Source: a phage. Taken from it: a stretch of DNA of 64,000 nt. The stretch lies in NCBI GenBank assembly GCA_033759635.1, contig GCA_033759635.1_4528.1; one strand, written 5' to 3'. The notes below the pieces were generated by a model. The model saw only the letters and a program-made list of their open reading frames with translations. It did no database searches and was not told the DNA's origin. The stretch's first letter is position 1. Each line of letters opens with the position of its first letter. Position numbers and translations under genes: made by a program. This document shows, one piece after another, positions 7,493-22,287 of the stretch.

Positions 7493-8227
7493 ATGGAGCT
7501 AATCTTTTTAAGTGGCATCAAACGTAGTGGTAAAGACACTACTGCTGATTACATCAATTCAAACTTTAAATCCGTAAAATACCAATTAGCATATCCAATT
7601 AAAGACGCTCTAGCAATAGCCTGGGGGCGTAGACATGCCGAAAACCCTGATGTATTCACAGAGTTGAAATACGAATACTTTGAAGGCATTGGATACGACC
7701 GTGAAACACCATTAAATCTCAATAAGTTGGATGTTATTGAATTATTGGAAGAAGCGCTAATTTATTTACAAAGTCAATATTTACCAATTAATAATGTTAA
7801 AGTATTATCATCGTTAGAAGGTGGATACTCATATCTAGATATTAAACCGTACGAAGCCCTGCGTGAAGCTATAAATAATATCAACGACACATGGTCGATC
7901 CGCCGTCTTATGCAAGCCCTCGGTACGGATGTTGTCGTTAATTTATTTGACCGTATGTATTGGGTTAAGCTTTTTGCATTAAACTATATGGATTATATTG
8001 GAAGTGATTTCGATTACTATGTTGTGACCGATACACGCCAAGTCCATGAAATGGAAACCGCTAGAGCGATGGGTGCTACAGTTATTCATGTGGTTCGCTC
8101 TGGTACGGAATCCACCGATAAACATATTACAGAAGCTGGGTTGCCTATTGAAGAAGGCGACTTAGTTATTACAAACGACGGCTCGTTAGAAGAGCTTTAT
8201 TCTAAAATTGAAAAAATCTTAAGGTAA
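7493..8227 (+). CDS. 1: deoxynucleoside monophosphate kinase gp1
   Basis: 244 aa beginning MELIFLSGIKRSGKDTTADY (gp1-type phosphate-binding loop); T4 gp1 is 241 aa. Confidence 0.85.
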   Translation: MELIFLSGIKRSGKDTTADYINSNFKSVKYQLAYPIKDALAIAWGRRHAENPDVFTELKYEYFEGIGYDRETPLNLNKLDVIELLEEALIYLQSQYLPINNVKVLSSLEGGYSYLDIKPYEALREAINNINDTWSIRRLMQALGTDVVVNLFDRMYWVKLFALNYMDYIGSDFDYYVVTDTRQVHEMETARAMGATVIHVVRSGTESTDKHITEAGLPIEEGDLVITNDGSLEELYSKIEKILR

Positions 8228-8231
8228 TAAA

Positions 8232-8917
<686 letters not shown>

Positions 8918-8930
8918 TTTTCACAAAACA

Positions 8931-8965
8931 GTTTACATAAAGATGATGGTGTGTTACTATCATCC
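8931..8965 (+). promoter_or_regulatory. early promoter cassette with stem-loop (PeSL-type)
   Basis: GTTTAC (-35), 18-nt spacer, TGnTACTAT extended -10 flanked by inverted repeat gatgat/atcatc; upstream of 8995. Confidence 0.5.
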
Positions 8966-8994
8966 TATCAAATAAACAGCCTCAAGGAAATAAA

Positions 8995-9282
8995 ATGAAA
9001 ACCTATAAAGAATTTATATCACCTGTTGCTAACGTTTCTACTCTGACCGAAGCATCCCTTACTTCTGAAGTTATTAAAACAAATAAAGGACGTGAGGGTA
9101 AACCAATGATTAGTCTGGTTGACGGTGAAGAAGTAAAAGGTACTGTTTACTTAGGGGACGGATGGTCTGCTAAGAAAGATGGCGCTACTATTGTTATCTC
9201 TCCGGCTGAAGAGACTGCACTGTTTAAAGCTAAGCACATTTCTGTAGCTCAGCTTAAAATTATTGCAAAAACTCTTCTGTAA
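8995..9282 (+). CDS. internal-protein-like head protein with capsid targeting sequence
   Basis: N-terminus MKTYKEFIS resembles the T4 internal-protein targeting sequence MKTYQEFIAE; 95 aa; sits where T4 ipI lies. Confidence 0.6.
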   Translation: MKTYKEFISPVANVSTLTEASLTSEVIKTNKGREGKPMISLVDGEEVKGTVYLGDGWSAKKDGATIVISPAEETALFKAKHISVAQLKIIAKTLL

Positions 9283-9285
9283 GTA

Positions 9286-9323
9286 GTTTACATGCCGATA
9301 GGACTATGTTATAGTAGTCCTAT
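9286..9323 (+). promoter_or_regulatory. early promoter cassette with stem-loop (PeSL-type)
   Basis: GTTTAC then ATAGGACTA-tgTTATAGT-TAGTCCTAT: 9-bp inverted repeat bracketing an extended -10. Confidence 0.55.
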
Positions 9324-9353
9324 CAAAACAAAATGAGTAAATGGAGAAATAAA

Positions 9354-9539
9354 ATGAAACGCGCTGAACTGATTCGTAATGTTGCTGTAGTAATTGCTTC
9401 AATGGCTTTTAGCTTTTCGATGTTTGTAGGATTCATTTGTGGACTACTGACAACAACAGAAAATTCTATCTCATTGGTAGTAGCATTTCTAATCGGCTTA
9501 ATCGCTATCGTTATGGATAAAATTGCAAAAGGTGAGTAA
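9354..9539 (+). CDS. small membrane protein
   Basis: ORF 9333..9539; second ATG has a GGAG RBS; one long hydrophobic stretch. Confidence 0.5.
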   Translation: MKRAELIRNVAVVIASMAFSFSMFVGFICGLLTTTENSISLVVAFLIGLIAIVMDKIAKGE

Positions 9540-9902
9540 ATGAAATATCATGTATATGCAGATTTTGAAGCAAATCCTTCTAAAGACCCTGATTGTCTTT
9601 TGATACGCAGACCATTTGATTCAGCAGCTCAAGCATGGGCTTGGATTAAATCTAAATCGCCTGGTTATATGTTCTTTGAAGTAGTCGATGACAATGGTAC
9701 ACTGCATCCAGAACCTACAGAAACTATTAATTTCCTTCTGTTTGCTGGTTACGACTGTTATCCTCTTGGCGGTATTGACGATCTTGTTGCTACAGGAAAA
9801 ACTGTTGAAGCTCTTCGCGAAATTTATAAAAACGCGGAAGAAAATTTTGACTGGTATCATATTGTTGATGCTCATACCTTTGAAATGGTGGAACATTCAT
9901 GA
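9540..9902 (+). CDS. hypothetical protein
   Basis: 120-aa ORF, start overlaps previous stop; no motif recognised. Confidence 0.5.
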   Translation: MKYHVYADFEANPSKDPDCLLIRRPFDSAAQAWAWIKSKSPGYMFFEVVDDNGTLHPEPTETINFLLFAGYDCYPLGGIDDLVATGKTVEALREIYKNAEENFDWYHIVDAHTFEMVEHS

Positions 9903-10189
9903 TTCTTTATGCTAAAGTATCGTCCATTGAGAACGGATATGAAAGCGACCAACGTGCAGCTAAAGCACTAGTTGATGACTATGGTATTCTGACTAACTTT
10001 GAGGTTGAAAAGGTTTATATCGACCGTTCGTCTTCGCAAGTTAAATTACTCTGTGAAGACGATAAATTTAACACAGTTAACTTTGATTTCTTTATTGAAA
10101 CAGAAAAAGGCCCTCTTGAATATGATATTTTCAAGAATCCTTTGAAATTACGTTGCATTGAATATAATTACATTAATATGGTACGGTGA
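9899..10189 (+). CDS. hypothetical protein
   Basis: 96-aa ORF with ATGA overlap to the upstream gene. Confidence 0.5.
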   Translation: MILYAKVSSIENGYESDQRAAKALVDDYGILTNFEVEKVYIDRSSSQVKLLCEDDKFNTVNFDFFIETEKGPLEYDIFKNPLKLRCIEYNYINMVR

Positions 10190-10193
10190 GTAA

Positions 10194-10709
10194 ATGAATA
10201 TTTGTTTAGGCAGTACAATCCCTAAAGGTTACGTAATTGATGTCACTACTTCGGAAAATGACGGCGACAACTATAAAACCAAAACATTATTTGGTGTAGA
10301 AGAGCATGAGCTCCAACAGTTTAAATATCTCTTGAAGAAATTTAAGAGTCGTCATTCTAGCACTAAAGCTGAACGTTACTGTGGTAATACACCATTCAGT
10401 GATTGCTCGCTTATTATCTACGAATATCTGGTTGAAGGACTGTTCTCAGACCATCTTTATCCAGAATTCATTAAAAAGGTCTTTGATATTGAAGTTGACC
10501 TCGGTAATAAATCTGAAGAAGACGAATCACGTGTATTTGACCTGTTCCGTGAGAATGGATATTTAGTATCAGAAGGTCTCATTGATATTCTTGGCCATGC
10601 TTCCGAATATTATGATTATGATTTCTTGCGTGTAGTTGAATGTGTTGAATTTGCTTATATTGAAGAAGAAATCGTTTTGCCGACTGTTAAAATGATTGAT
10701 TTGCTTTAA
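10194..10709 (+). CDS. hypothetical protein
   Basis: 171-aa acidic ORF; no motif recognised. Confidence 0.5.
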   Translation: MNICLGSTIPKGYVIDVTTSENDGDNYKTKTLFGVEEHELQQFKYLLKKFKSRHSSTKAERYCGNTPFSDCSLIIYEYLVEGLFSDHLYPEFIKKVFDIEVDLGNKSEEDESRVFDLFRENGYLVSEGLIDILGHASEYYDYDFLRVVECVEFAYIEEEIVLPTVKMIDLL

Positions 10710-10788
10710 GAATTATGTGTTATTATTAATTCATACCCTCTATTACCAAAGGTGCTCTAAAGTGCCTTTCATAATAGAAAGTTATTTA

Positions 10789-10862
10789 GGCCCTGTAGCT
10801 CAACGGTTAGCAGCAGTCCCCTCATAAGGGAAAGGTTACCAGTTCGAATCTGGTCTGGGTCA
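10789..10862 (+). tRNA. tRNA with CAU anticodon (Met, or Ile if lysidine-modified)
   Basis: Hand-folded cloverleaf: acceptor GGCCCUG/CUGGGUC (one U-U mismatch), anticodon stem UCCC/GGGA with loop CUCAUAA, T-arm ACCAG-UUCGAAU-CUGGU; CCA not encoded. Confidence 0.65.
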
Positions 10863-10868
10863 TATATT

Positions 10869-10945
<77 letters not shown>

Positions 10946-10963
10946 ACTTTAAGTGAGGAAAAT

Positions 10964-11308
10964 ATGAAAGGCAATGTTTATCTGGTAGTTCATGATTTAA
11001 CGTTTTATTTTAACGAATATGATACAGTTATTTCTCATCGATTGATTAATTCGCTGTATCAGCATGCCGATTACATCTATGTTCAAAATGAATTTGGTCA
11101 TTGGAAGTTCATTAAAAACCGTTCCGGGTTAACTAGTTTTGAATACTTTGACCGTAAAGACCTTTTAAACGAAATCCCATTGCAACATCGGTTTCAGAAA
11201 CGCGAATCATTATATTATTGCCGTCATATACCAAACGCCGAATGTGTTGATGAAGCAATTAATCTATGGCGTAGACGTAGAGAACAAATTGATGATATGC
11301 CAAAATAA
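10964..11308 (+). CDS. hypothetical protein
   Basis: ORF 10916..11308 overlaps tRNA-Arg; trimmed to the Met with GAGGAA RBS (MKGNVYLVVHDL...). Confidence 0.5.
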   Translation: MKGNVYLVVHDLTFYFNEYDTVISHRLINSLYQHADYIYVQNEFGHWKFIKNRSGLTSFEYFDRKDLLNEIPLQHRFQKRESLYYCRHIPNAECVDEAINLWRRRREQIDDMPK

Positions 11309-11309
11309 G

Positions 11310-11618
11310 AAGCCGGGTCGCTACCGGCAAGTCGTCGGACTGATGTTCCCTGAGTAAGGACTGGTCTTAATAAATCTTTATGATTCGTTAATATCCCCTT
11401 ACATCACAGCAGAAACGGCGCACAGAATTATCGATTCGAGGAAATATCTTTGCCGTAAGCCGAGTAGCGTTTTTGACGGAACGTTCGGATATGGTCGAGA
11501 TATGGCCTTTTAAAAATATTGAGTAGCGTCAACTGCTTAATAACCGGGTTCGAATCCCGGCGTTTCGTACAAACACTTGCCTTAGCAGGTGGAACCCCGA
11601 CAAGGTTACCGCAAGGCT
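11310..11618 (+). ncRNA. ORF-free structured region downstream of the tRNAs; candidate small stable RNA(s)
   Basis: About 300 nt with no plausible plus-strand ORF; contains a perfect T-arm-like element CCGGG-TTCGAAT-CCCGG and a 7-bp acceptor-like pairing (CGGAACG/CGTTTCG), but no clean anticodon arm could be folded; ends in a strong terminator. Confidence 0.3.
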
Positions 11619-11619
11619 T

Positions 11620-11648
11620 AGCCCCTTCCGAAAGGTTGGGGCTTTTTT
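11620..11648 (+). terminator. rho-independent terminator (repeated cassette, copy 1)
   Basis: AGCCCC-ttccgaaaggtt-GGGGCT followed by TTTTTT. Confidence 0.7.
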
Positions 11649-11692
11649 GCATAATAATAAATAGATAAGTTAATTAACTTAGGAAAAGTAAC

Positions 11693-12157
11693 ATGAAATC
11701 ATATGCAGAATTTTTGACTGAACAATCTAGTTCAGATGTAAAAGCCGCTGCGATTGCAGCAATTCAAGCAGGTAAATATTCTTACAAAGACGCCTCTGAT
11801 GAAGAACGTTTCCGTTTTATTAGAGATTTTAAAGCCGAAGGTTTTACTAATGCTAATACTGTTAGCCGAGTTTTTAAAAGCCTAGCTGCATCAGGTGAAT
11901 TGTTCCAGAAAGCTACAGGTAAAGCACCAGCACCAAAAGCGGACCCTAAAGCAGCTCAAGAAAAAAATATCGCCAAAGGAATTATTTCTAAGTATGAAGC
12001 AATTCTTAAAGAACTTTTGGTAATCAAAACTGAAGGTCAGAAACTAGCTCGAGCACATAGCTTCAAAGATAATCCTCACGCTCATAGCCTTGAGTATGTT
12101 GAAGATATCCAAAAACTTATTAAAGACCGTATCTGGTCTGCTAAGCAAATTAAATAG
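11693..12157 (+). CDS. internal-protein-like protein with capsid targeting sequence
   Basis: N-terminus MKSYAEFLTEQ (targeting-sequence-like); 154 aa, Ala/Lys-rich. Confidence 0.5.
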   Translation: MKSYAEFLTEQSSSDVKAAAIAAIQAGKYSYKDASDEERFRFIRDFKAEGFTNANTVSRVFKSLAASGELFQKATGKAPAPKADPKAAQEKNIAKGIISKYEAILKELLVIKTEGQKLARAHSFKDNPHAHSLEYVEDIQKLIKDRIWSAKQIK

Positions 12158-12162
12158 TAGAA

Positions 12163-12190
12163 AGCCCCTTCCTTACGGTTGGGGCTTTTT
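12163..12190 (+). terminator. rho-independent terminator (repeated cassette, copy 2)
   Basis: AGCCCC-ttccttacggtt-GGGGC + TTTTT; near-identical to copies at 11620 and 27026. Confidence 0.7.
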
Positions 12191-12223
12191 GGCATCTAGG
12201 GCATAAAAATATTTCATAAAGAT

Positions 12224-12260
12224 GTTTACTTCTTCCCTAGATGTGTTACTATAGACCTAT
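12224..12260 (+). promoter_or_regulatory. early promoter cassette (GTTTAC ... TGTTACTAT)
   Basis: GTTTAC -35 and extended -10 TGTTACTATAG about 20 nt upstream of the 12281 start. Confidence 0.5.
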
Positions 12261-12280
12261 CAAAACATGAGGAAAATGTT

Positions 12281-12586
12281 ATGAGTCTTTACACTGAACT
12301 GAATAAAAAATCTGAAGAATCTGCTGAAACTATTTTTAAAAACGTGCAAAAGCGTATTTTAGAAAAGATGTATAACACCGCAGCTAAAGGTGAAAAATCT
12401 TGCCGGTTTCCGATGAGGTGTTCTTCAGATTTATGCGCAAACACTATTGAATGGCTGGAAAGTGAAGGTCTTACGGTAGAGAAAAACCCGGCGACTTCTA
12501 TTGATAGCGAATCATATATTAGTATTTCTTGGGATAAACCTCGTACGAATGAAGGACACTACAAGTTGTTAAGTTGGAAAAATTAA
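12281..12586 (+). CDS. hypothetical protein
   Basis: 101-aa ORF with AGGAAA RBS. Confidence 0.5.
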   Translation: MSLYTELNKKSEESAETIFKNVQKRILEKMYNTAAKGEKSCRFPMRCSSDLCANTIEWLESEGLTVEKNPATSIDSESYISISWDKPRTNEGHYKLLSWKN

Positions 12587-12655
12587 AAATAATGATGTAC
12601 AAGCACCAAGGATGGTGATACTATAGACTTATCAACTACAGTGGAGTAAACAAAA

Positions 12656-12819
12656 TGACTACTTTAATTATTTGGTTCGATGAAAATGAAGAAACATACT
12701 GTGTGAATATTGGTGAAAGCCCAATGCCTGAATTTGAATCCTCAGATAAAAACTCTGTTGTATCTTGGGCCGAAGGTTATAAAGCAGCTAAAGGTGATGT
12801 TGAAATAATTTACATCTAA
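12656..12819 (+). CDS. small hypothetical protein (54 aa)
   Basis: Hand-translated MTTLIIWFDENEETYCVNIGESPMPEF...; GGAG RBS; preceded by a promoter-like cassette; below the ORF-track size cutoff. Confidence 0.4.
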
Positions 12820-12866
12820 GTAAGTTTATGTTATAGTAATCACATCAAATCAAGAGGAGAAACAAA

Positions 12867-13094
12867 ATGGCTACAGTTAGTATTGATGTCGTTGATTATG
12901 AATACACTGAAGAAGTTATTCGCAACCGTCACCCTGAAGTTCGTATCGATTCAGTCCAAGATTCCAAGTTTTGGACAACTGAGCTTAATCTGAGTGGTCC
13001 TTATGAAGCTGTTAAGAAGTTCATGGTTGAAGAATACTGCGAAGGCATGCACCCCGAAGACGCTAAGTTTTATGTCAATTTGATTAAAAAATAA
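12867..13094 (+). CDS. hypothetical protein
   Basis: 75-aa ORF with AGGAGA RBS. Confidence 0.5.
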   Translation: MATVSIDVVDYEYTEEVIRNRHPEVRIDSVQDSKFWTTELNLSGPYEAVKKFMVEEYCEGMHPEDAKFYVNLIKK

Positions 13095-13130
13095 TTTACA
13101 AACTCTTGAGAGCAGAGTATAATGCTCTCA
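13095..13130 (+). promoter_or_regulatory. early promoter cassette with stem-loop (PeSL-type)
   Basis: TTTACA -35; inverted repeat TGAGAGCA/TGCTCTCA bracketing GAGTATAAT; near-identical copy at 42931. Confidence 0.55.
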
Positions 13131-13163
13131 TGGATAATAAACCACCAATTGAAAGGTAATAAT

Positions 13164-13757
13164 ATGAACACACTGAAGAAACTTGTTGAATTCATCCGCA
13201 CTAAACTGGGCACTGCTATGGCTAAAAATCTGACTGTAGAAGAACAGTATAACGCAGCTGCAGATAAGTTGATTACTCAAATCAAAGAACTAAAAACGGC
13301 TTCTGTTAAATCTATTAATGAAGAAAAACGTATTCGCGAACTTGTTAATGAAAAGAACAAGCAAGCCGCTTCTAAGGAACGTGAAATTCGTAAGCTCCTG
13401 GCTGAAGGACAAGATGTTACCATGCATGCTAAGCTTGGTCTTCTGTATCGTCGAACTGCCGAACAACTTAATACAAAAGCTGACGGGTACGCCGCTATGC
13501 GAATTGAAATTGCTCGTAAGGTGGTTGAACTTGATGATGCTCGTCAGAATTTGGCAATCAAACTCGAATACATCCGCGAAACTCGAGCAGCCAATGCCCT
13601 TGGTATCTCTACGGCTGATGATGTGATCGAAATTGCTGCACTGACTAAGGTTGATATCGAAGACACTCTGACTCGTGTTGAAACATTCAATGGCACTCCA
13701 GCTGGTGTCGAAACCACTTCTGCTGATGTACAAGAATATATTAACTCTTTGAAATAA
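13164..13757 (+). CDS. coiled-coil protein (possibly PspA-like)
   Basis: ORF 13122..13757 trimmed to [10 protein letters not shown]...; long heptad-rich helical sequence; the PspA resemblance is by eye only. Confidence 0.45.
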
Positions 13758-13765
13758 AATAATAT

Positions 13766-13788
13766 GGAGGACTCCGGTCCTCCTTTTG
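13766..13788 (+). terminator. rho-independent terminator
   Basis: GGAGGAC-tccg-GTCCTCC followed by TTTT. Confidence 0.6.
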
Positions 13789-13806
13789 GATAATAAAGGA
13801 GTTAAC

Positions 13807-14409
13807 ATGCGAAACCAAAATAATGATATTGACTCAATGTTCGAAGAGTTCCGAGATAAGGTAAATCCACCTACGTCTTTAGTTGATTCATTACGATATG
13901 TTTCAACCGGACGTAAATGGTACTGGTCGTCTTCTTATGAGACCACCGAGAAAACGGCTAGCCATAGCAGAAAATCTTTATTAGCCCCAGGTATTATGAT
14001 TCATGATATCGGAGCTATTGCTAAACTAGTTGCAGACCATGATATTAGATTCACTGATTTCGTTGCTCCTACGTGGTCTGTTTGTTGTTTAAACACTGAA
14101 TGGGAATATATCAGCGAACGCTCTGAAGATTATTATGGTTTTAGAGATAAGCTTCTGAGGTCTAATATGTTTTATATCGATACAGAAGTTCTAGTCGATA
14201 ATAAAAAATACTACTTTACGTTAATCGTCGATTCTGAAACTATGTATGAAGGCAAGCCTTTGCTTAAGAGAGTTGATGCTTTAAGTGCTATTGATGCGCT
14301 TTATGAAACTATGGTTGTTAGTCCTAATTTCACTAACAATTTAATCCTTGAGCAATTTATTATGGAATGTAGAGAATATGTCAAAGCCAACCCTATACAT
14401 GCCAAGTAA
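13807..14409 (+). CDS. hypothetical protein
   Basis: ORF 13786..14409 trimmed to the Met after AAGGAG (MRNQNNDIDSMF...). Confidence 0.5.
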   Translation: MRNQNNDIDSMFEEFRDKVNPPTSLVDSLRYVSTGRKWYWSSSYETTEKTASHSRKSLLAPGIMIHDIGAIAKLVADHDIRFTDFVAPTWSVCCLNTEWEYISERSEDYYGFRDKLLRSNMFYIDTEVLVDNKKYYFTLIVDSETMYEGKPLLKRVDALSAIDALYETMVVSPNFTNNLILEQFIMECREYVKANPIHAK

Positions 14410-14773
14410 GCCCTGGGCGTATGAATACAAGCGTAAATTAATCCCAAATGAAGTACTATTTGGCCCTATTTTAGCTTTAGCATTTTTAATCTTTATGATT
14501 ATAGGAGCCGTTTTAGATTTTAGTGAAGTTATATCGTCTGATGCAGCATTTTCATTAATGTTTGTCGCACCACTTATTGTACCGTTTTTATTAATGCCTA
14601 TTAACTGGATGGGATATTGGTACCAAGGACGTCATCACAGGGCCCGATTAAGAGAATGGAAAGTTCAGTGCGCAAAAGCCCAAGCTCAGTATGATGAAGC
14701 TGTTAAAAAGTATGAATATGAAGAAGCTATGGAATTCGTTAAGGAAATAAGATGCAAAAGCCTTAACTCTTAA
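14348..14773 (+). CDS. membrane protein (start uncertain)
   Basis: Two hydrophobic segments; true start probably at an internal Met (14378 or 14399) because the 5' end overlaps the previous gene. Confidence 0.45.
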   Translation: MSNLLWNVENMSKPTLYMPSKPWAYEYKRKLIPNEVLFGPILALAFLIFMIIGAVLDFSEVISSDAAFSLMFVAPLIVPFLLMPINWMGYWYQGRHHRARLREWKVQCAKAQAQYDEAVKKYEYEEAMEFVKEIRCKSLNS

Positions 14774-14814
14774 CCGTATGGCCTTCTCTTGGTGAGAACA
14801 TTCTAATTTTTATT

Positions 14815-15111
14815 ATGAGTATTGGCATGGGATTTGCCTTTGGATTAGTTGGATTTATTATTGACGGCGTTGTGTTAGGATTTATAGGGAACACTGGTGG
14901 ATTCACAGATCAATGGCAGGACTTACGGTATACCCAAGCCTTTGCATCCATCGCATCATTTTGTACTGTAGTCTATTTTTACTACAATTTTATAAACCAT
15001 AACAAGAAAAATAAAAAAGTTTACGCTTCTCAAATGATTAGTTATAATGAACTCCTAGCTAGACGTGAAAATGAAACAATCGAAAACTTTATTAAGGAAT
15101 GTAGAAAATGA
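14815..15111 (+). CDS. small membrane protein, ENFIKECR-tail family (copy 1)
   Basis: N-terminal TM segments; C-terminus ...ENFIKECRK shared with the 17257 and 18250 products. Confidence 0.55.
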   Translation: MSIGMGFAFGLVGFIIDGVVLGFIGNTGGFTDQWQDLRYTQAFASIASFCTVVYFYYNFINHNKKNKKVYASQMISYNELLARRENETIENFIKECRK

Positions 15112-15413
15112 GTAAGATTATTGAAATTAAAGTACCAGAGTTTAATGATGCCAAATCCGCTTCAGATGCAATTTATAAACTTCTGAATCAAGCTGAACGT
15201 ATCGAAGAAGAAGCTACAAAGATTGCAGACCAATATGCAGTATCGTTTTCTGTAGGTGATTATGGTAGCGGTCGTACTTATTATCCTAAGGGTGAAATCG
15301 TATCCCAGTGGATGAAAGATGAAATTGAAAATAATGGCGGCGATGTTAAGCGTGAAGGTAATGGATACGTTATTACTGAAGGTGCTTGGGTTTCATCTTC
15401 TGCGTTGTGCTAA
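15108..15413 (+). CDS. hypothetical protein, WVSSSxxC-tail family (copy 1)
   Basis: 101 aa ending GAWVSSSALC; shares a YGxGxTYY motif with the next gene. Confidence 0.5.
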   Translation: MSKIIEIKVPEFNDAKSASDAIYKLLNQAERIEEEATKIADQYAVSFSVGDYGSGRTYYPKGEIVSQWMKDEIENNGGDVKREGNGYVITEGAWVSSSALC

Positions 15414-15422
15414 GGAATCATT

Positions 15423-15695
15423 ATGTCTAAAGAACAAACCGAACTGGCTGAAGCTGTAGCAAAAATCTATGCAGCTATTGAGGCTGCCAAAGAAATTGCT
15501 GATAAACAAAACACAACATTCGACTTGTATCCAGCTTATGGTATGGGTGGAACGTATTATTCTCCTGGATTCTTGAAAAAAGAACTTGAGCATTATACCG
15601 AACAAGGCAATCCGAATTGGGCCACTGTCAACCAACACTCATATTACACCAGCCTCGAATCAGGTGGTTGGGTTGCATCTTCTATGGAATGCTAA
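15423..15695 (+). CDS. hypothetical protein, WVSSSxxC-tail family (copy 2)
   Basis: 90 aa ending GGWVASSMEC. Confidence 0.5.
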   Translation: MSKEQTELAEAVAKIYAAIEAAKEIADKQNTTFDLYPAYGMGGTYYSPGFLKKELEHYTEQGNPNWATVNQHSYYTSLESGGWVASSMEC

Positions 15696-15704
15696 GGAAA
15701 TCAT

Positions 15705-15902
15705 ATGTCTCGTGAATTAGATTGTGCTGTACGTACGGCAGTAGCTGCTCTGGAAAACCTGTTCCAAATTGCAACAGAAGAACGCGAAGAAGTTACATTA
15801 TGGATTGAAGATAACGCAGGTCTGAATCTCCAGGACGCGATCTCATTATCCCACAATAGTATCACTGTTCAAGGCTGGGTATCATCTAGTTATTCTTGCT
15901 AA
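15705..15902 (+). CDS. hypothetical protein, WVSSSxxC-tail family (copy 3)
   Basis: 65 aa ending QGWVSSSYSC. Confidence 0.5.
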   Translation: MSRELDCAVRTAVAALENLFQIATEEREEVTLWIEDNAGLNLQDAISLSHNSITVQGWVSSSYSC

Positions 15903-15906
15903 AACA

Positions 15907-15944
15907 GTTTACAACAAGATAGGGCTATGTTATAGTAGTCCTAT
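15907..15944 (+). promoter_or_regulatory. early promoter cassette with stem-loop (PeSL-type)
   Basis: GTTTAC + ATAGGGCTA-tgTTATAGT-TAGTCCTAT. Confidence 0.55.
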
Positions 15945-15952
15945 CAAATTAA

Positions 15953-16204
15953 ATGGAGACAACAATGGTTTATTACGAAAGTATCGGAACCGAAGTAGTT
16001 GCTAAAACTATTACTCGTGAAAAGTTTGCAAAGATATTCGATATGCGTTATAAAAAATCTGAACACAAAGGCATCCGATTCGAAGATGCGCACTGTACAA
16101 TTTGCCCTTATAATGAAGACATAAACGGCACAATCGTTCCATTGGTAGAGGCTTCACATGACGACCTCTGGGATGAATATAATATCGCATGTCGCGAAAT
16201 TTAA
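15953..16204 (+). CDS. hypothetical protein
   Basis: 83-aa ORF following a promoter cassette. Confidence 0.5.
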   Translation: METTMVYYESIGTEVVAKTITREKFAKIFDMRYKKSEHKGIRFEDAHCTICPYNEDINGTIVPLVEASHDDLWDEYNIACREI

Positions 16205-16229
16205 GTAATCTAAATTCGAGGAAAATATT

Positions 16230-17186
16230 ATGATGTTAGTTATTGGTTCTCGTGCACTTCACTATCACGGTCTTATTGATTCTAGCGCTATCAAAAATAG
16301 TGATTGGGACTTTATTGCGGACCAATGTTCTTGGAATGCATTCAAAAATCAAATGATGGGTGTATATGTTCACCAAGATAACCCTGGTGTCCAAGTTTTC
16401 AAATGTTTCCATAATGGACGCGAAACTCATTTTGAAGCATACATCGTTCCGGCTATCACTAACGTTCGCGAACTAGTCGGTGAACTCACTCCTGAAGATT
16501 TCACGTCTTCTTATGACCTTTTAAAATACGCCAAGAAAAATTTGACTAAAGACCGTTTGAACGGGTTTTACTGGGCAACTCCTGAGATATGTCTTGCAAT
16601 TAAGATGTCTCATCGTTTCAAGAAAAATAATCCATTCTTTTTAAAGACTATGAACCATATTCAGTATCTTCGTGGTAAAGGTGTTACACTGGACGATGAA
16701 CTTACTGAAATTATGCTGAAACGCCAGAAAGAAACCTTGAACTATGCTCACCCAGTTCTTGACACTTCTAAAAGCGCATTCTTTAAAGATGACATCTATA
16801 CGTATGACCATGATACTATTCACGAAGCCATTGCACTAACAGACCGTCCAGCGTATACATTTTATATGAAAGATGGTTCTGAAGTCATGACCTCACGCGA
16901 GAAGTTCGAATCATTACCAGAAATGGTCAAATTAGCCGGCGTATACGAAGAATCATGTGTACTAGCGTTAGAACGTTCTCAGATTCCTAATAACTTTGAA
17001 ATCCATCCACGTGATAGTTTTATGATGGCATTAGAAAAAGTCTGTACTTCAATCACGTCAGGCTGGTTCCGTGAATACGCTTGGGAAAACTACAGCAAAG
17101 TTGTAAGTATGTACCAAAGCTTAGGACATGACGATTATGTAAAACGTTTTAAACAAAATTTCCATATGGTAAAACCTTTCAAATAA
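16230..17186 (+). CDS. hypothetical protein, possible Pol-beta-type nucleotidyltransferase fold
   Basis: 318 aa; N-terminus IGSRALHYHGLIDSSAIKNSDWDF resembles the hG[GS]...DxD minimal nucleotidyltransferase motif, but spacing is longer than canonical. Confidence 0.4.
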   Translation: MMLVIGSRALHYHGLIDSSAIKNSDWDFIADQCSWNAFKNQMMGVYVHQDNPGVQVFKCFHNGRETHFEAYIVPAITNVRELVGELTPEDFTSSYDLLKYAKKNLTKDRLNGFYWATPEICLAIKMSHRFKKNNPFFLKTMNHIQYLRGKGVTLDDELTEIMLKRQKETLNYAHPVLDTSKSAFFKDDIYTYDHDTIHEAIALTDRPAYTFYMKDGSEVMTSREKFESLPEMVKLAGVYEESCVLALERSQIPNNFEIHPRDSFMMALEKVCTSITSGWFREYAWENYSKVVSMYQSLGHDDYVKRFKQNFHMVKPFK

Positions 17187-17198
17187 TTTCGCAAAACT

Positions 17199-17236
17199 GT
17201 TTACACAATTATAGGACTATGTTATAGTAGTCCTAT
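17199..17236 (+). promoter_or_regulatory. early promoter cassette with stem-loop (PeSL-type)
   Basis: GTTTAC + ATAGGACTA-tgTTATAGT-TAGTCCTAT (same cassette as at 9286). Confidence 0.55.
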
Positions 17237-17256
17237 TAAAACATGAGGAGAATATT

Positions 17257-17562
17257 ATGAAATTAGGCGAAACCAACCGAATTGGTCTTTTAACTATATT
17301 TGTATCACTTTTTTACGTAGCTCTTTCTGTTGCAGTATTACAAAAGGCTTACGATATGGATGGTGTTCCTGGTTTTGTATTCTTATCACCATTTTTATTA
17401 TTCGTCGGGGCTTTGTTATTATATGCCACGACTAGTTTTGACCATAACGTCTGGGTTAATTATAAATGTAAATTGTCTGAAGAAGAACACGCAGAAGCTC
17501 GTAAAAAAACTATTGAATCTACCAATCTAGAAAATTTCATTAAAGAATGTCGAGGAAAATAA
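17257..17562 (+). CDS. small membrane protein, ENFIKECR-tail family (copy 2)
   Basis: Two TM segments; C-terminus ...LENFIKECRGK. Confidence 0.55.
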   Translation: MKLGETNRIGLLTIFVSLFYVALSVAVLQKAYDMDGVPGFVFLSPFLLFVGALLLYATTSFDHNVWVNYKCKLSEEEHAEARKKTIESTNLENFIKECRGK

Positions 17563-17563
17563 T

Positions 17564-18250
17564 ATGAATAGTTCTAAAGTGTTTAATAGTCAAGCTCGTG
17601 CAGTAGGTGGTTTTGCTCATAACGTACAAAATGACCAAATCAAAAATGAACCAATGTTCTTTAACTGTGATTTGAGTTTTGCTTGGGATAACGGCGGTCC
17701 TATTACTCGTAGCTTTATTGCCAATCTCCCAATTGATTGGACTAATCAACATGTTGTATTTGATTCTCGGGTTCATATGCTGATGCCTGGTTGGTATCCT
17801 GCTATTCCTGGATATCACCATGACGATGTTCCTCGCCCTGATATTCCAGTCTGCCAACACTTTATTACTGCAGGACAACCTGACTATGATAACCCTCGTT
17901 ACCATTCTGAACATATTCTTGGTCTTGTTAACGCTGACGTGTGTCCTACTCATTTTGCAACAGGAACTGCAGAGTTCAGTCAGATTCCTGATGGCGAACT
18001 TATCTATCGCCAATGGCACAAAGAAGTCCTCGAAAAAATTGAAAAAGGTGAACTAGAGAAATGGGAAGCTCCAGACCGTACTCTTCTTCAGTTTGATTGG
18101 CAAACATGGCACACTGGTTCTCGTGCAATTAGTAATGGATGGCGTTGGTTCGGACGTGTATCTCGTAATACAGACCGAGTTAAAAAGATTACCAATGAAA
18201 TTCGTGTCAATGCCCAAGTTTATCTGGAATTCCCTATGGAAGGCTGGTAA
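17564..18250 (+). CDS. hypothetical protein (His/Cys-rich)
   Basis: 228-aa ORF; several HxD/HH/Cys clusters suggest metal binding, but no family recognised. Confidence 0.5.
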   Translation: MNSSKVFNSQARAVGGFAHNVQNDQIKNEPMFFNCDLSFAWDNGGPITRSFIANLPIDWTNQHVVFDSRVHMLMPGWYPAIPGYHHDDVPRPDIPVCQHFITAGQPDYDNPRYHSEHILGLVNADVCPTHFATGTAEFSQIPDGELIYRQWHKEVLEKIEKGELEKWEAPDRTLLQFDWQTWHTGSRAISNGWRWFGRVSRNTDRVKKITNEIRVNAQVYLEFPMEGW

Positions 18251-18741
18251 TGATTAACAAAACATATTGGTCTAATATTGTCGACGGCAATGAAGGTATT
18301 TCATACTATTCAGTAGATTGGACAGGATGTCCATCCTACTTAGTGAAACGTATTTGTCAAGAATTTAAAATCGACCAGCCAGCAGGTATTATCGTGAACA
18401 GATACATTAATGGATATCAACCTATCGATGAAGTAATACGAACAACTCAAGCTGATCTTGAAAAGTTTTTCAATAAGTGTCAATGGATAACAGGATGGAT
18501 TATATTTGTACCGTCGGTATGGTTTTTTAGTACTAAAGTAAGTGCCTTTGCCATACCAGATATTATCGCTATCTTATTAGCATCTACTATCGTAAGTATT
18601 ATTGGTGGTATTATTGGTGGAGGTACTATAGGCATCATTATTAATCTTGTTAAAAGTAGTTTACAGGAACGTAAAGACAAGATAAAGGCCAAGAATAATG
18701 AAGTTGAACGTTTTATTACCGAATGCAGGAATTTGAGATGA
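18250..18741 (+). CDS. membrane protein, ENFIKECR-tail family (copy 3)
   Basis: TM segments with a GG-rich helix (IIGGIIGGGTIG); C-terminus ...VERFITECRNLR. Confidence 0.5.
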   Translation: MINKTYWSNIVDGNEGISYYSVDWTGCPSYLVKRICQEFKIDQPAGIIVNRYINGYQPIDEVIRTTQADLEKFFNKCQWITGWIIFVPSVWFFSTKVSAFAIPDIIAILLASTIVSIIGGIIGGGTIGIIINLVKSSLQERKDKIKAKNNEVERFITECRNLR

Positions 18742-18974
18742 GTATAGCAATTTACATTAAATCAGAATCATGTGATAGTTATCTGTACACATATGATAAA
18801 GATGTGTCAGAAGAAAAAATCAAAGACAACCTTAATACGGACCTTGATTTGTTCCGTCCTATTGCAGATTACAAACTTGCGGTCTCTAATAGTGAAAGTC
18901 CATCTAAAGAAACGCGCATTGAAGAATTTATGTCCGAATTAATGGCCAAATCATGGGACCGAGATGATGAGTAA
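18738..18974 (+). CDS. hypothetical protein
   Basis: ORF 18723..18974 trimmed to the Met with AGGA RBS (MSIAIYIKSE...). Confidence 0.45.
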   Translation: MSIAIYIKSESCDSYLYTYDKDVSEEKIKDNLNTDLDLFRPIADYKLAVSNSESPSKETRIEEFMSELMAKSWDRDDE

Positions 18975-19422
18975 GAAAAATAAAGTGAAAGAGATATCAG
19001 CTGGTATTATCTTCATGACAAAAGATAAAGAATTATTCATGGGGCGTGTAACTGGTTCTAGTCCTAAAGGTTCTTTAGCTCATCGGTGGGATATTCCTAA
19101 AGGCCGTGTCGAACCTGGCGAATCTCCTATTGAAGCCGCTATTCGTGAATGCGAAGAAGAAACTGGGTTTACACAATATGACCCTGCCTTCCTGAAAGAC
19201 CTAGGTGAACATAATTACTCAGACAATAAGAATATTCATCTGTTCCTATATACCATCCCTGTAGAGCACGAGCAATTCAGAAACAGTGTTTGTAATTCCT
19301 ATCATACATTCCCGGACGGACGACAGATTCCTGAATTTGATGCATTCGCTTTAATTAAACCTTCTCAATGGGAATATGTAATGGGCAAATCATTATATAA
19401 GGTGCTCACTACCCTCCTATAA
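18964..19422 (+). CDS. nudE: Nudix hydrolase (NudE-like)
   Basis: Nudix box GRVEPGESPIEAAIRECEEETGF; 152 aa; next to lysozyme e as T4 nudE (e.1) is. Confidence 0.8.
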   Translation: MMSKKNKVKEISAGIIFMTKDKELFMGRVTGSSPKGSLAHRWDIPKGRVEPGESPIEAAIRECEEETGFTQYDPAFLKDLGEHNYSDNKNIHLFLYTIPVEHEQFRNSVCNSYHTFPDGRQIPEFDAFALIKPSQWEYVMGKSLYKVLTTLL

Positions 19423-19430
19423 GTAATAAA

Positions 19431-19454
19431 TACCTCCTATAAACGTGGGAGGTA
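19431..19454 (+). promoter_or_regulatory. RBS-sequestering hairpin upstream of lysozyme gene e
   Basis: TACCTCC-tataaacgtg-GGAGGTA; the right arm contains the Shine-Dalgarno GGAGG, 5 nt before the e ATG. Confidence 0.5.
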
Positions 19455-19456
19455 TT

Positions 19457-19945
19457 ATGAATATATTTGAAATGCTTCGTAATGACGAAGGTCTTAGACT
19501 GACTTTATACAAAGACACTGAAGGCTTTTGGACGATTGGCATAGGCCATTTAGTAACAAAGAACCCGTCTTTAGCCGTAGCTAAAGCTGAACTTGACAGA
19601 ATGATCGGTCGTAAATGCAACGGTACAATTACCCTTGATGAGGCTGAAAAGCTATTTAATGAAGACGTTGATAAAGCCGTTCGCGGGATCTTGGGTAATG
19701 CTAAACTTAAACCGGTATATGATTCTTTAGATGCGGTTCGTCGATGTGCATTGGTCAATATGGTCTTCCAAATGGGTGTATCAGGCGTCGCCGGTTTTAC
19801 TAATTCTCTTCGTATGCTTCAACAGAAACGTTGGGATGAAGCGGCAGTAAATTTAGCCCAATCTAAATGGTATCGTCAGACACCTAATCGCGCGAAACGC
19901 GTAATCTCAACATTTAAAACAGGAACTTGGAAAGCGTATATATGA
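19457..19945 (+). CDS. e: endolysin (T4 lysozyme, gene e)
   Basis: [32 protein letters not shown]... is colinear with T4 lysozyme including catalytic Glu11/Asp20/Thr26 context; 162 aa. Confidence 0.95.
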
Positions 19946-20223
19946 AAACATACAGTGAATTTTTATCAGAATCTATTCTTAACGAAGCTACTGACACATT
20001 TGCAACTAAGCTAGGTGCAGCTTTGGTCGAAGCCGAAAGTCTATTAGCACGTATTTCTGAACTTGCTAGTAAGATAGATACTCGCAAATTTGAGCGCACC
20101 AGTGATATCGTTAAGCTTGAAGCACTGTTGCGTATGTGCGATAAACCGGAAGAAATCGCTAAGAACGGCTCGCTGATGAAACAACGTCTTGAAAAATATA
20201 TTTCAGGCGCTTCAGAAAAATAG
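19942..20223 (+). CDS. internal-protein-like protein with capsid targeting sequence
   Basis: ORF 19927..20223 trimmed to [11 protein letters not shown]...; targeting-sequence-like N-terminus; adjacent to e as T4 ipIII is. Confidence 0.55.
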
Positions 20224-20224
20224 T

Positions 20225-20278
20225 GTTTACTTCCTCCAAGGGTTTTGATACTATACATTCATCAACTACTTGGAGGAA
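20225..20278 (+). promoter_or_regulatory. early promoter cassette with long-range inverted repeat
   Basis: GTTTAC; TTCCTCCAAG ... CTTGGAGGAA inverted repeat bracketing GATACTATA; the right arm carries the RBS of denV. Confidence 0.5.
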
Positions 20279-20281
20279 ATT

Positions 20282-20695
20282 ATGACTCGTATCAATTTAA
20301 CACTTGTTTCTGAACTGGCCGACCAACATCTTATGGCTGAGTATCGTGAATTACCTCGTGTATTCGGTGCAGTCCGTAAACATGTTCAAAACGGTAAACG
20401 TGTAAAGGATTTTAAAATCTCTCCAACATTTATCTTAGGCACGGGTCACGTAACATTCTTTTACGACAAACTCGAATTTTTACGTTTACGCCAAATCGAG
20501 CTAATCGCTGAATGTTTGAAACGTGGTTTCAAAATCAAGGACACGACTGTCCAGGATATTTCCGACATCCCTGCCGAATTTCGTAATAATTATGTCCCGT
20601 CCGAAGCGTCCATTGCGATAAGTCAAGCACGCTTAGATGAAAAAATTGCTCAACGTCCGACTTGGTACAAATACTATGGTAAATCAATTTACTAA
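20282..20695 (+). CDS. denV: endonuclease V, pyrimidine-dimer DNA glycosylase (DenV)
   Basis: [34 protein letters not shown]... colinear with T4 endonuclease V; 137 aa. Confidence 0.95.
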
Positions 20696-20701
20696 GGAAA
20701 A

Positions 20702-20962
20702 ATGAAAATGTATCAAGAATTTATCACTGAAGCAGATGCCAAAGGTCCTAAATTTAAAGTTAAAGCTTTCATTGGTGATGCCGAAGACTTTGGCTCATTA
20801 AAACGTAATGGGTATTCTTTCTTAGGTGGCGATGGTAAAGAAATCAACACCTATGCAAAACGTAGTGAAATTGCTTATGTTGTAGTAAATCCTAAAGTAG
20901 ATGTTGACGATATTGGATACGATTTTAACAACTTCGGAATTATTTCTGGCGGTAAAGCTTAA
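20702..20962 (+). CDS. internal-protein-like protein with capsid targeting sequence
   Basis: N-terminus MKMYQEFITEA; 86 aa. Confidence 0.55.
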   Translation: MKMYQEFITEADAKGPKFKVKAFIGDAEDFGSLKRNGYSFLGGDGKEINTYAKRSEIAYVVVNPKVDVDDIGYDFNNFGIISGGKA

Positions 20963-21026
20963 ATTGTTTACGCTTAAGTATTAATATGGTATAATTACTC
21001 TATCAAAACAAACAAGGAAACAAAAA

Positions 21027-21329
21027 ATGAAAACATATCAAGAATTTATTACTGAAGCGCGAGTGAGTGCAGGTAAATTAGAAGCCGCTATAAATAAAAA
21101 GGCCCATTCATTTCATGATTTGTCCGATAAAGACCGTAAGAAACTTGTAAGCCTTTATATTGACAAAGAGCGTATTCTCGCTCTTCCTGGCGCTAATGAA
21201 GGTAAACAGGCCAAGCCTTTGAATGCTGTCGAAAAGAAAATTGATAACTTTGCTTCTAAATTCGGTATGTCTATGGATGACCTTCAGCAAGCGGCTATCG
21301 AAGCAGCTAAAGTAATTAAAGGTAAATAA
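21027..21329 (+). CDS. internal-protein-like protein with capsid targeting sequence
   Basis: N-terminus MKTYQEFITEA (near-consensus targeting sequence); 100 aa. Confidence 0.6.
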   Translation: MKTYQEFITEARVSAGKLEAAINKKAHSFHDLSDKDRKKLVSLYIDKERILALPGANEGKQAKPLNAVEKKIDNFASKFGMSMDDLQQAAIEAAKVIKGK

Positions 21330-21442
21330 CAGTTTACTTTCTCCTAGAATTGTGATAGTATATTCATAATTACTTAGAGGGGTAAATACAGAAATGGACA
21401 ATTCATGCGCCACGGAATGGCCCAACCTAAAAGAGAAACTAA

Positions 21443-21982
21443 ATGAGAACATTTTTAACTGGTCCTTATCTATCCCTGATGAATGCTTTTACACACCATT
21501 CTGATGCTAGAGTAGAAGAAATTTGTAAGAACGGTTATGCCCCACCATTTGAAGACGTACTCAAGCAGTACTGTACACTTCGTTTAGACGGCGGCAGACA
21601 ATCCGGTAAATCAATTGCTGTGACTAATTTTGCTGCTAATTGGTTGTATGATGGCGGAACAGTTATTGTTCTTTCTAATACTTCAGCTTACGCTAAAATT
21701 TCTGCCGGCAACATTGAAAAAGAATTTTCTCGATATTCTAGCGATGATATTCGATTCCGTTTATTTACTGATTCTGTCCGTAGTTTTATTGGTAATGAAG
21801 GACATAAATTCCGTGGATTAACGCTTTCTCGTATTCTGTACATAATTGACGAGCCTATTAAAGCTCCTGATATGGATAAGATTTACGACATCCATATTAA
21901 AACAGTCCAACACTGTTGCAAAAGCAAATATTGCATCGGTGGTATTGCTCGTCCTCAATTTTTTGTGATTGGAATGCAATGA
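21443..21982 (+). CDS. hypothetical P-loop protein
   Basis: Walker-A-like GGRQSGKS; 179 aa. Confidence 0.45.
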   Translation: MRTFLTGPYLSLMNAFTHHSDARVEEICKNGYAPPFEDVLKQYCTLRLDGGRQSGKSIAVTNFAANWLYDGGTVIVLSNTSAYAKISAGNIEKEFSRYSSDDIRFRLFTDSVRSFIGNEGHKFRGLTLSRILYIIDEPIKAPDMDKIYDIHIKTVQHCCKSKYCIGGIARPQFFVIGMQ

Positions 21983-22287
21983 TGACCACTATTGAAGTTT
22001 TTGAGCATTGTTATAACAGCCCAGTATGTAATAAAAGGGCCCTTGTAGAAAATTATGAGATTTACCATTTTAAACCTAAACGATACCGTTTGACTAAAGG
22101 TCCGTTCGCAGGGCAGCAGGTTCTTTGTACTGCTCCTAATGCACGGTTGATGACTAGTATTCCGCATTTCAAAATGGAATTTATTGATGGGCCATTTAAG
22201 GGATTAATAACTCAAAGTTTAATGGCGTTTAATTCCGATCCATTTTTGATTAAAGAAAAATCTTGGATAAATTTATTTTCTAATTGA
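21979..22287 (+). CDS. hypothetical protein
   Basis: ORF 21916..22287 trimmed to the Met overlapping the previous stop (MMTTIEVFEH...). Confidence 0.45.
   Translation: MMTTIEVFEHCYNSPVCNKRALVENYEIYHFKPKRYRLTKGPFAGQQVLCTAPNARLMTSIPHFKMEFIDGPFKGLITQSLMAFNSDPFLIKEKSWINLFSN

Follow-up and report, generated by a model that had tools for sequence, protein, structure and literature searches.

Five small genes in a 64,000-nucleotide (nt) stretch of phage DNA (contig GCA_033759635.1_4528.1 of GenBank assembly GCA_033759635.1, hereafter the window) encode products that begin with the capsid targeting sequence (CTS) of the phage T4 internal proteins (Ips). The genes start at positions 8995, 11693, 19942, 20702 and 21027 and are named here by these positions (Table 1). 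We conclude that they likely encode internal head proteins of an RB69-like T-even phage that are packaged, cleaved and injected, the orthologs of ipI (8995) and ipII (21027) acting against GmrSD and the other three as further inhibitors. A preliminary description of the window had read the five genes as T4-type CTS internal head proteins and candidate injected anti-restriction factors; on the sequence comparisons below, this was right in kind.

The pattern MK.Y.EF(I/L) begins exactly five open reading frames (ORFs) across the 64 kb, and in a six-frame scan with the looser pattern K.Y.EF[ILVM] we found it at these five initiation codons and nowhere else. Shuffling the window 200 times gave on average 0.01 start codons with the strict motif (maximum 1), as compared to the 5 observed. 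The same motif, applied as a control to the 63-76 kb region of T4, returned exactly ipI, ipII and ipIII, in agreement with the earlier statement that T4 has three such proteins. All five leaders are encoded on the + strand. Their codons vary synonymously (TAT/TAC, ATA/ATC/ATT, TTG/TTA, ACC/ACA/ACT) while the amino acids are kept, indicating that the conservation acts on the peptide.

The CTS was described in 1996 (Mullaney and Black, via PMC9026906), with targeting assigned to residues 4 (aromatic) and 7 (Phe), and processing to residues 8 (Ile or Leu) and 10 (Glu) (Mullaney and Black 1996, summarized in PMC9026906). Tyr4 and Phe7 follow directly on M-K-x in all five products, and four of them carry the (L/I)-x-E processing motif of the prohead protease gp21 at residues 8-10 (ITE, ITE, LSE and LTE). 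The exception is 8995 (MKTYKEFISP), in which Pro replaces Glu at position 10 and an L-x-E first occurs at residues 17-19 (LTE), where T4 IPI has ITE. The consensus MK(T/S/M)Y(Q/K/A/S)EF(I/L)(S/T)E, given in the preliminary description for all five products, thus describes four of them and fails for 8995 at position 10.

Table 1. Leader genes of the window and the elements that border them
Feature	Position (nt)	Strand	Details
ipI ortholog	8995-9282	+	95 residues; 86% identity to T4 IPI over 95 residues
8995 leader, residues 1-19	8995-9051	+	MKTYKEFISPVANVSTLTE
Predicted mature IPI*-like protein of 76 residues	9052-9279	+	from 8995
Leader gene, phrog_2280, RB32ORF133c / PhAPEC2_134 type	11693-12157	+	154 residues; leader MKSYAEFLTE at 11693-11722
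Ip5-like internal head protein (RB69ORF127c type)	19942-20223	+	93 residues; phrog_3499 'internal head protein', 1.2e-46
RB69ORF125c-type internal head protein	20702-20962	+	86 residues; leader MKMYQEFITE; phrog_2667 'internal head protein', 3.2e-21
ipII ortholog	21027-21329	+	100 residues; leader MKTYQEFITE; 93% identity to T4 IPII, 100/100 residues, E = 2e-67
T4-type early-promoter cassette (GTTTAC...TACTAT)	8925-8976	+	directly upstream of ipI; repeat families D1-D3; promoter scan match 8932-8960
T4-type early-promoter cassette	20956-21018	+	upstream of ipII; left border of the site of the extra leader gene in SA79RD
Terminator hairpin after rnaC homolog, left edge of 11693 cassette	11620-11652	+	88% identical direct repeat of 12163-12195, family D14
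Second terminator hairpin copy, right edge of 11693 cassette	12163-12195	+	followed by an early promoter (GTTTAC ~12226)
AATAAATA, one-mismatch late-promoter-like motif	11656-11663	+	37 nt upstream of 11693; sole promoter candidate between terminator and gene

The mature part of 8995 is 91% identical to T4 IPI. Residues 20-95 match model positions 1-76 of Pfam PF11634, IPI_T4 (2.6e-49, 165.5 bits as compared to a cutoff of 25), and align with the 76-residue IPI* of PDB 2JUB ('Internal protein I') over its residues 1-76 (7.4e-41). Because residues 20-95 align end to end with the solved IPI*, cleavage of 8995 is predicted after LTE-19, as in T4. The protein belongs to phrog_4363 'internal virion protein' and is labeled Ip1 in the related phages Shf125875 and SA79RD. 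It shares with T4 IPI the 95-residue precursor, the 19-residue propeptide ending in (L/I)-T-E, the position downstream of 57B and the early promoter; its leader, however, is nearer to the IPII/IPIII consensus (Y4 and I8, as compared to F4 and T8 in T4 IPI).

The ortholog of ipII, 21027, falls in phrog_7857 (4.5e-55) and is labeled IpII in relatives. It has the 10-residue leader of T4 IPII except for A9T, an early promoter upstream, and a place in the ip locus at e/denV. Gene order at this locus is e - 19942 - denV - 20702 - ipII in the window and e - ipIII - ipII - denV in T4, so that 19942 holds the place of T4 ipIII immediately downstream of e. No protein of the window resembles mature IPIII, with BLASTP returning leader similarity only, and this phage therefore has no IPIII. 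The alignment to T4 IPI, IPII and IPIII that had been proposed as a check on the five genes accordingly yields an IPI ortholog (8995), an IPII ortholog (21027) and no counterpart of IPIII.

Two further genes are of types already annotated as internal head proteins. The ATG of 19942 overlaps the stop codon of the lysozyme gene e (ATGA), and its product is an 'internal head protein' in several RefSeq records, including RB69p127. Over residues 1-84 it is ∼48% (47-55%) identical to the genes labeled ip5, Ip5 or ipV of T2 and RB32 (tblastn, E ∼1e-15); on this similarity it is a distant allele of Ip5, in the same PHROG (3499) and below the level of an ortholog. A second L-x-E follows its leader (LNE, residues 13-15). 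The leader of RB69 ORF127c is degenerate (MKTYMNFYQNLSLNE), and the window copy has the canonical form. Gene 20702 starts 6 nt past the denV stop codon, and its product is 95% identical to RB69p125, an 'internal head protein' in NC_004928. NCBIfam has a model for none of the five proteins.

The remaining gene, 11693, is the only one of the five that is not already labeled as an internal head or virion protein in RefSeq records or PHROGs: it is 'hypothetical' in 512 of the 512 phage records that carry it, and phrog_2280 is listed as 'unknown function'. No Pfam match lies above the cutoff, and a PDB sequence search returned none. Its leader has all the residues critical in T4, positions 4 and 7 for targeting and 8 and 10 for processing. 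Tequatrovirus homologs with ∼75% identity begin MKSYAQFLNE(A/V)VLNE, with two successive L-x-E sites, and the relatives at 48-60% identity recovered by an exhaustive HMMER search start with MLKFNEFLAE, MLEYSEFLKE or MKFKEFLIE. The latter have the N-terminal domain in common and differ in their C-terminal domains (domain swapping), and another T4-like contig holds one distant relative in a syntenic position. The mature protein is basic (isoelectric point (pI) 9.6, 26 Lys + Arg), with a Lys/Ala/Pro linker joining two domains, and an AlphaFold2 model is all-helical with two domains at a predicted local distance difference test score (pLDDT) of 70.6. The homolog in Yersinia phage fD1, g140 (157 residues), was found to be phage-particle-associated with liquid chromatography-tandem mass spectrometry (PMC8309999 Table S3), and the fD1 homolog of IPI, g146, is likewise flagged (PMC8309999). 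The locus of 11693 is neither of the two classical ip loci but a third site, located downstream of the tRNA/rnaD/rnaC cluster, and the protein is larger (154 residues, two domains). We suggest that the 11693 family is probably a further internal protein at a third cassette site, its 'hypothetical' label being an annotation gap. A more specific proposal is possible and only tentative: that phrog_2280 is an unrecognized class of injected internal protein, occupying a third ip hotspot past tRNA/rnaD/rnaC, with exchangeable C-terminal domains, that neutralizes a defense other than the GmrSD variants countered by Ip1-3.

Several database entries depart from the full-length form of this family. An A7 run at 11961-11967 inside 11693 (GA_A_AAA_AAT) fits the slippery pattern X_XXY_YYZ in frame. 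The database variants P0007, P0008 and P0009 (93-111 residues) shift frame at this run, which truncates them after the N-terminal domain, and the alternative frame across it is open over 11895-12023. The frame change could reflect sequencing error, real allelic inactivation or slippage. A metagenomic protein of 94 residues, P0010, combines a trna.3-like N-terminus (compare window 9540-9902) with the C-terminal 30 residues of the 11693 family, a chimera that is evidence for deletion or recombination across the tRNA region in some phage.

Outside the leader the five proteins have little in common. Pairwise BLASTP of residues 11 to the end gave nothing better than E = 0.004, and hhalign rejects that pair, bearing out the earlier statement that the mature regions are mutually unrelated. 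Remote homology of the N-terminal domain of 11693 to IPII had been a candidate from this BLASTP value and from a match to phrog_7857 (E = 0.008); hhalign run without the leaders gave it 1.5% probability, and we rejected it. For the three proteins not assigned to a T4 ortholog (11693, 19942 and 20702), tblastn against T4 63-76 kb returned leader matches only, and the leader is also all that T4 IPIII has in common with the window proteins.

In T4 the Ips are established to be injected into the host with the DNA, ∼1000 internal protein molecules are embedded in the T4 DNA (PMC3012670), and the CTS alone suffices to package foreign proteins (PMC9026906). In the phage studied here, by analogy, the leader would dock each protein onto the prohead scaffolding core and gp21 would cut after the Glu of (L/I)-x-E, at residue 10 in four proteins and at residue 19 in the IPI ortholog. 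The genes for the gp21 protease and the gp22 scaffolding core are presumably present, as judged from the complete Mosigvirus genome that is 96.6% identical to this region; genes 21 and 22 are core genes in all T4-related phages (PMC9026906). The mature proteins would then stay in the DNA-filled head and enter the host with the genome, and because they would be injected with it, they would act before any phage gene is expressed. Proteins that precede phage gene expression in this way influence host range and are relevant to phage therapy.

The likely targets follow from T4. T4 Ip1, Ip2 and Ip3 inhibit the GmrSD of CT596, ECOR21 and ECOR17, respectively, without cross-protection (Silas et al. 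2025, PMC12373910), and T4 IPIII is required on ECOR17. The IPI and IPII orthologs would thus most likely inhibit GmrSD-family type IV nucleases that attack DNA with sugar-modified hydroxymethylcytosine (hmC). The preliminary description had called all five candidate effectors of unknown specificity; this stands for 11693, 19942 and 20702, and it no longer applies to 8995 and 21027, whose T4 counterparts have assigned targets. Since all three T4 Ips are, as of 2025, specific GmrSD inhibitors, every uncharacterized Ip becomes a candidate for inhibiting a new nuclease or defense variant, and 19942, 20702 and 11693 are most likely injected inhibitors of other such variants of the host. According to a published proposal, variants of the GmrSD family are the targets of all proteins encoded at the ip loci (Silas et al. 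2025, PMC12373910). The Dar proteins of phage P1 and the ejection proteins of phiKZ/SPN3US-like phages (x-x-E sites, T4-like prohead protease) are likewise loaded into the head, often processed from a propeptide, and enter the cell together with the DNA, where they act first; they differ in that their sequences and targeting signals are unrelated to those described here, and giant-phage propeptides are mostly >100 residues.

A number of results weigh against this reading. Mature 19942 and 20702 are near-neutral (pI 6.3-6.4), as compared to the basic IPII and IPIII. The first 40 residues of 19942 hold four (L/I/V)-x-E sites, so that cutting into fragments is possible. The function of 11693 could not be read from its fold, as Foldseek against BFVD and PDB returned only members of that same family or no match with E < 1, and hence no informative structural neighbor. 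A perfect TATAAATA late promoter was found upstream of none of the five leader genes in a scan of the window. The ip genes of T4 likewise have no perfect late promoter directly upstream. The fD1 particle set flags 113-137 of 277 proteins, including NudE and denV, and is of low specificity (PMC8309999). Finally, RB69-type DNA carries arabinosyl-hmC and not glucosyl-hmC; the targets may accordingly not be the same as in T4, including the nuclease variant relevant to the IPI ortholog of this phage of the RB69 genus.

Some of these features would suit packaged proteins with a different task. It is rather unlikely that 11693, 19942 and 20702 are packaged to serve as structural or DNA-handling proteins, whether in charge neutralization, in DNA condensation or ejection, or as a scaffold-like filler that is degraded to peptides. 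The basic charge of mature 11693 with its Lys/Ala/Pro-rich linker is what such a role would predict, as are the several potential gp21 sites near the start of 19942, which resemble those of scaffold proteins, and the number of internal protein molecules in T4 DNA (PMC3012670). Yet all three T4 Ips have a specific anti-restriction target (PMC12373910), and 19942 and 20702 are not polycations. The genes are also dispensable, being present or absent among near-identical phages, which is a better fit to accessory host-range factors.

We regard it as very unlikely that the leader in 11693, 19942 and 20702 is a hitch-hiking recombination or translation-initiation cassette, copied along with a promoter and ribosome-binding-site module, and that the proteins are left unpackaged and act in the infected cell. 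It is true that both the leader-coding 30-mer and the ribosome-binding site AAGGAAA recur at the DNA level (families D4-D6) and serve as indel boundaries, and that T4 IPIII without its CTS still works if it is expressed in the host. The synonymous differences between leader codons with conserved amino acids argue for selection on the peptide instead. Residues 4, 7, 8 and 10 are kept in 11693 relatives down to 48% identity, even with a one-residue shift of the leader, the CTS alone packages foreign proteins in T4 (PMC9026906), and g140, the homolog in fD1, was detected in preparations of virions (PMC8309999). That the motif recurs by chance, or that the ORFs are not genes, has nothing but the small size of the ORFs in its favor and is refuted by the 0.01 occurrences expected against 5 observed and by the conservation of all five as annotated coding sequences in hundreds of phage genomes.

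The DNA around the five genes exhibits cassette junctions. The T4-type early-promoter cassette occurs in six copies, at 8925, 9280, 12802, 15901, 17193 and 20956, each of ∼50-60 nt (GTTTAC ... TATGTTATAGTAGTCCTATCAAA, with an internal inverted repeat), and its layout upstream of ipI and ipII is that found for T4 ipI, ipII and ipIII. These cassettes are PeSL-like elements, which are thought to mediate module shuffling. The Ip7 cassette of Shf125875 is bounded by early-promoter cassettes. In SA79RD a copy of the leader-coding 30-mer stands at either end of the ORF124c-type cassette, and the window looks at that site as if a deletion or insertion had taken place from leader to leader. Duplicated terminators enclose the 11693 cassette: the homology to RB69 and T4 extends across the rnaD/rnaC homologs and ends at the left hairpin, and RB69 has at this site ORF149c, with the same leader type (MKTYAEFLTE) and an unrelated mature part. 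Across the types, then, unrelated mature parts go together with variable cassette loci flanked by early-promoter-type repeats. The ip set varies between strains because ip cassettes are gained and lost by recombination between early-promoter, terminator and leader-coding repeats. Ip variants were reportedly found through their common leader by Repoila et al. in 1994, with cassette turnover at the ip loci. The junctions seen here agree with the cassette pattern described for the ip loci by Arbiol et al. 2010 (PMC2839356).

The late-promoter-like motif AATAAATA upstream of 11693 also occurs at 19425-19432, where it lines up with the late promoter proven for T4 e. One-mismatch late-promoter sites occur about once per 640 nt, too frequent to be decisive, and the motif lends weak support to 11693 as an internal protein. 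The perfect TATAAATA sequence occurs 5 times in the window, as compared to 8.4 expected by chance, and a single copy falls within the region, internal to ipII.

The number of leader genes differs among close relatives. The window has 5, Shf125875 has 6 (an extra Ip7 after ipI), SA79RD has 6 (an extra ORF124c-type gene before ipII), and RB69 has 7 in the same region (ORF156c, ipI, ORF149c, ORF127c with its degenerate leader, ORF125c, ORF124c and ORF123c). The repertoire, described earlier as expanded, is so relative to T4 (5 as compared to 3) and not relative to RB69 (7) or the two closest relatives (6 each). On the minus strand of RB69 (NC_004928), ORF149c (10551-10991, MKTYAEFLTE), ORF124c (848-1120, MKTYKEFIAE) and ORF123c (450-779, MKTYQEFIAA) are all annotated as 'hypothetical', and ORF149c appears frameshifted with respect to ORF148c.

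The system itself is long known and is textbook T-even biology. Arbiol et al. 2010 (PMC2839356) count >30 Ip variants, and the T-even Ips have been described as diverse defense proteins with only the CTS in common (Rao and Black 2010, PMC3012670). As with Ip5 (T2, RB32) and Ip7 (RB15), 20702, 11693 and RB69 ORF123c, ORF124c, ORF149c and ORF156c show the same pattern: the leader is common, the mature part is unrelated, and promoter-like repeats delimit the cassettes. A literature search with the leader peptide strings returned only T4 engineering papers; whether the 11693 type is among the Ip variants of Repoila et al. 1994 or Comeau et al. 2007 was left unchecked. The sole addition is the 11693 family. 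The window confirms a typical Mosigvirus Ip set, flags this widespread family and provides clean examples of cassette turnover, leaving the current understanding unchanged.

By sequence similarity the window is from a Mosigvirus, an RB69-like T4-type phage. In a megablast search of window 8000-22000 against a phage collection, Shigella phage Shf125875 matched at 96.6% identity and 100% coverage, and many other Mosigvirus genomes matched at 95-97%. The genes follow the order of the T-even early region, with gene 1 (deoxynucleoside monophosphate kinase), 57A, 57B, ipI, trna.4-trna.2 and two tRNAs, and, after the tRNAs, the e.x genes, nudE, e, denV and vs.8. Leader genes thus adjoin 57B and e/denV, the classical ip loci. 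Directly upstream of ipI, 57B (8462-8917) is a member of Pfam Acb1 (7.4e-59), a nuclease directed against the cyclic oligonucleotide-based antiphage signaling system (CBASS). Two different counter-defense functions are thereby adjacent, which fits a counter-defense neighborhood.

Upstream of 11693, positions 11303-11647, 'non-coding' between ORF150c and 11693, are 92% identical to T4 rnaD + rnaC + terminator (BLASTN). In T4 rnaD and rnaC are stable RNA species 2 and 1, and the window homolog holds a tRNA-like T-arm sequence. A search of Rfam with the 384-nt non-coding stretch upstream of 11693 returned two tRNAs only, the rnaD/rnaC homolog matching no family.

For the lysozyme gene e the probable start codon is ATG 19457 and not GTG 19445 as called by the ORF finder. 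Its Shine-Dalgarno sequence GGAGG (19448-19452) can pair with CCTCC (19433-19437), with the late-promoter-like AATAAATA just upstream. This arrangement at 19425-19459 mirrors that of T4, in which the ribosome-binding site is freed in late transcripts only.

Other small genes of the region are repetitive in different ways. Three tandem paralogs (15108-15413, 15423-15695 and 15705-15902) encode products ending in W-V-(S/A)-S-S-x-x-C, and their gene ends and the next ribosome-binding sites are repeated at the DNA level (78%, family D10). Four genes (13786-14409, 14815-15111, 17257-17562 and 18250-18741) encode a C-terminal F-I-x-E-C-R (QFIMECRE, NFIKECRK, NFIKECRGK and RFITECRNLR), and several of these four have predicted membrane segments.

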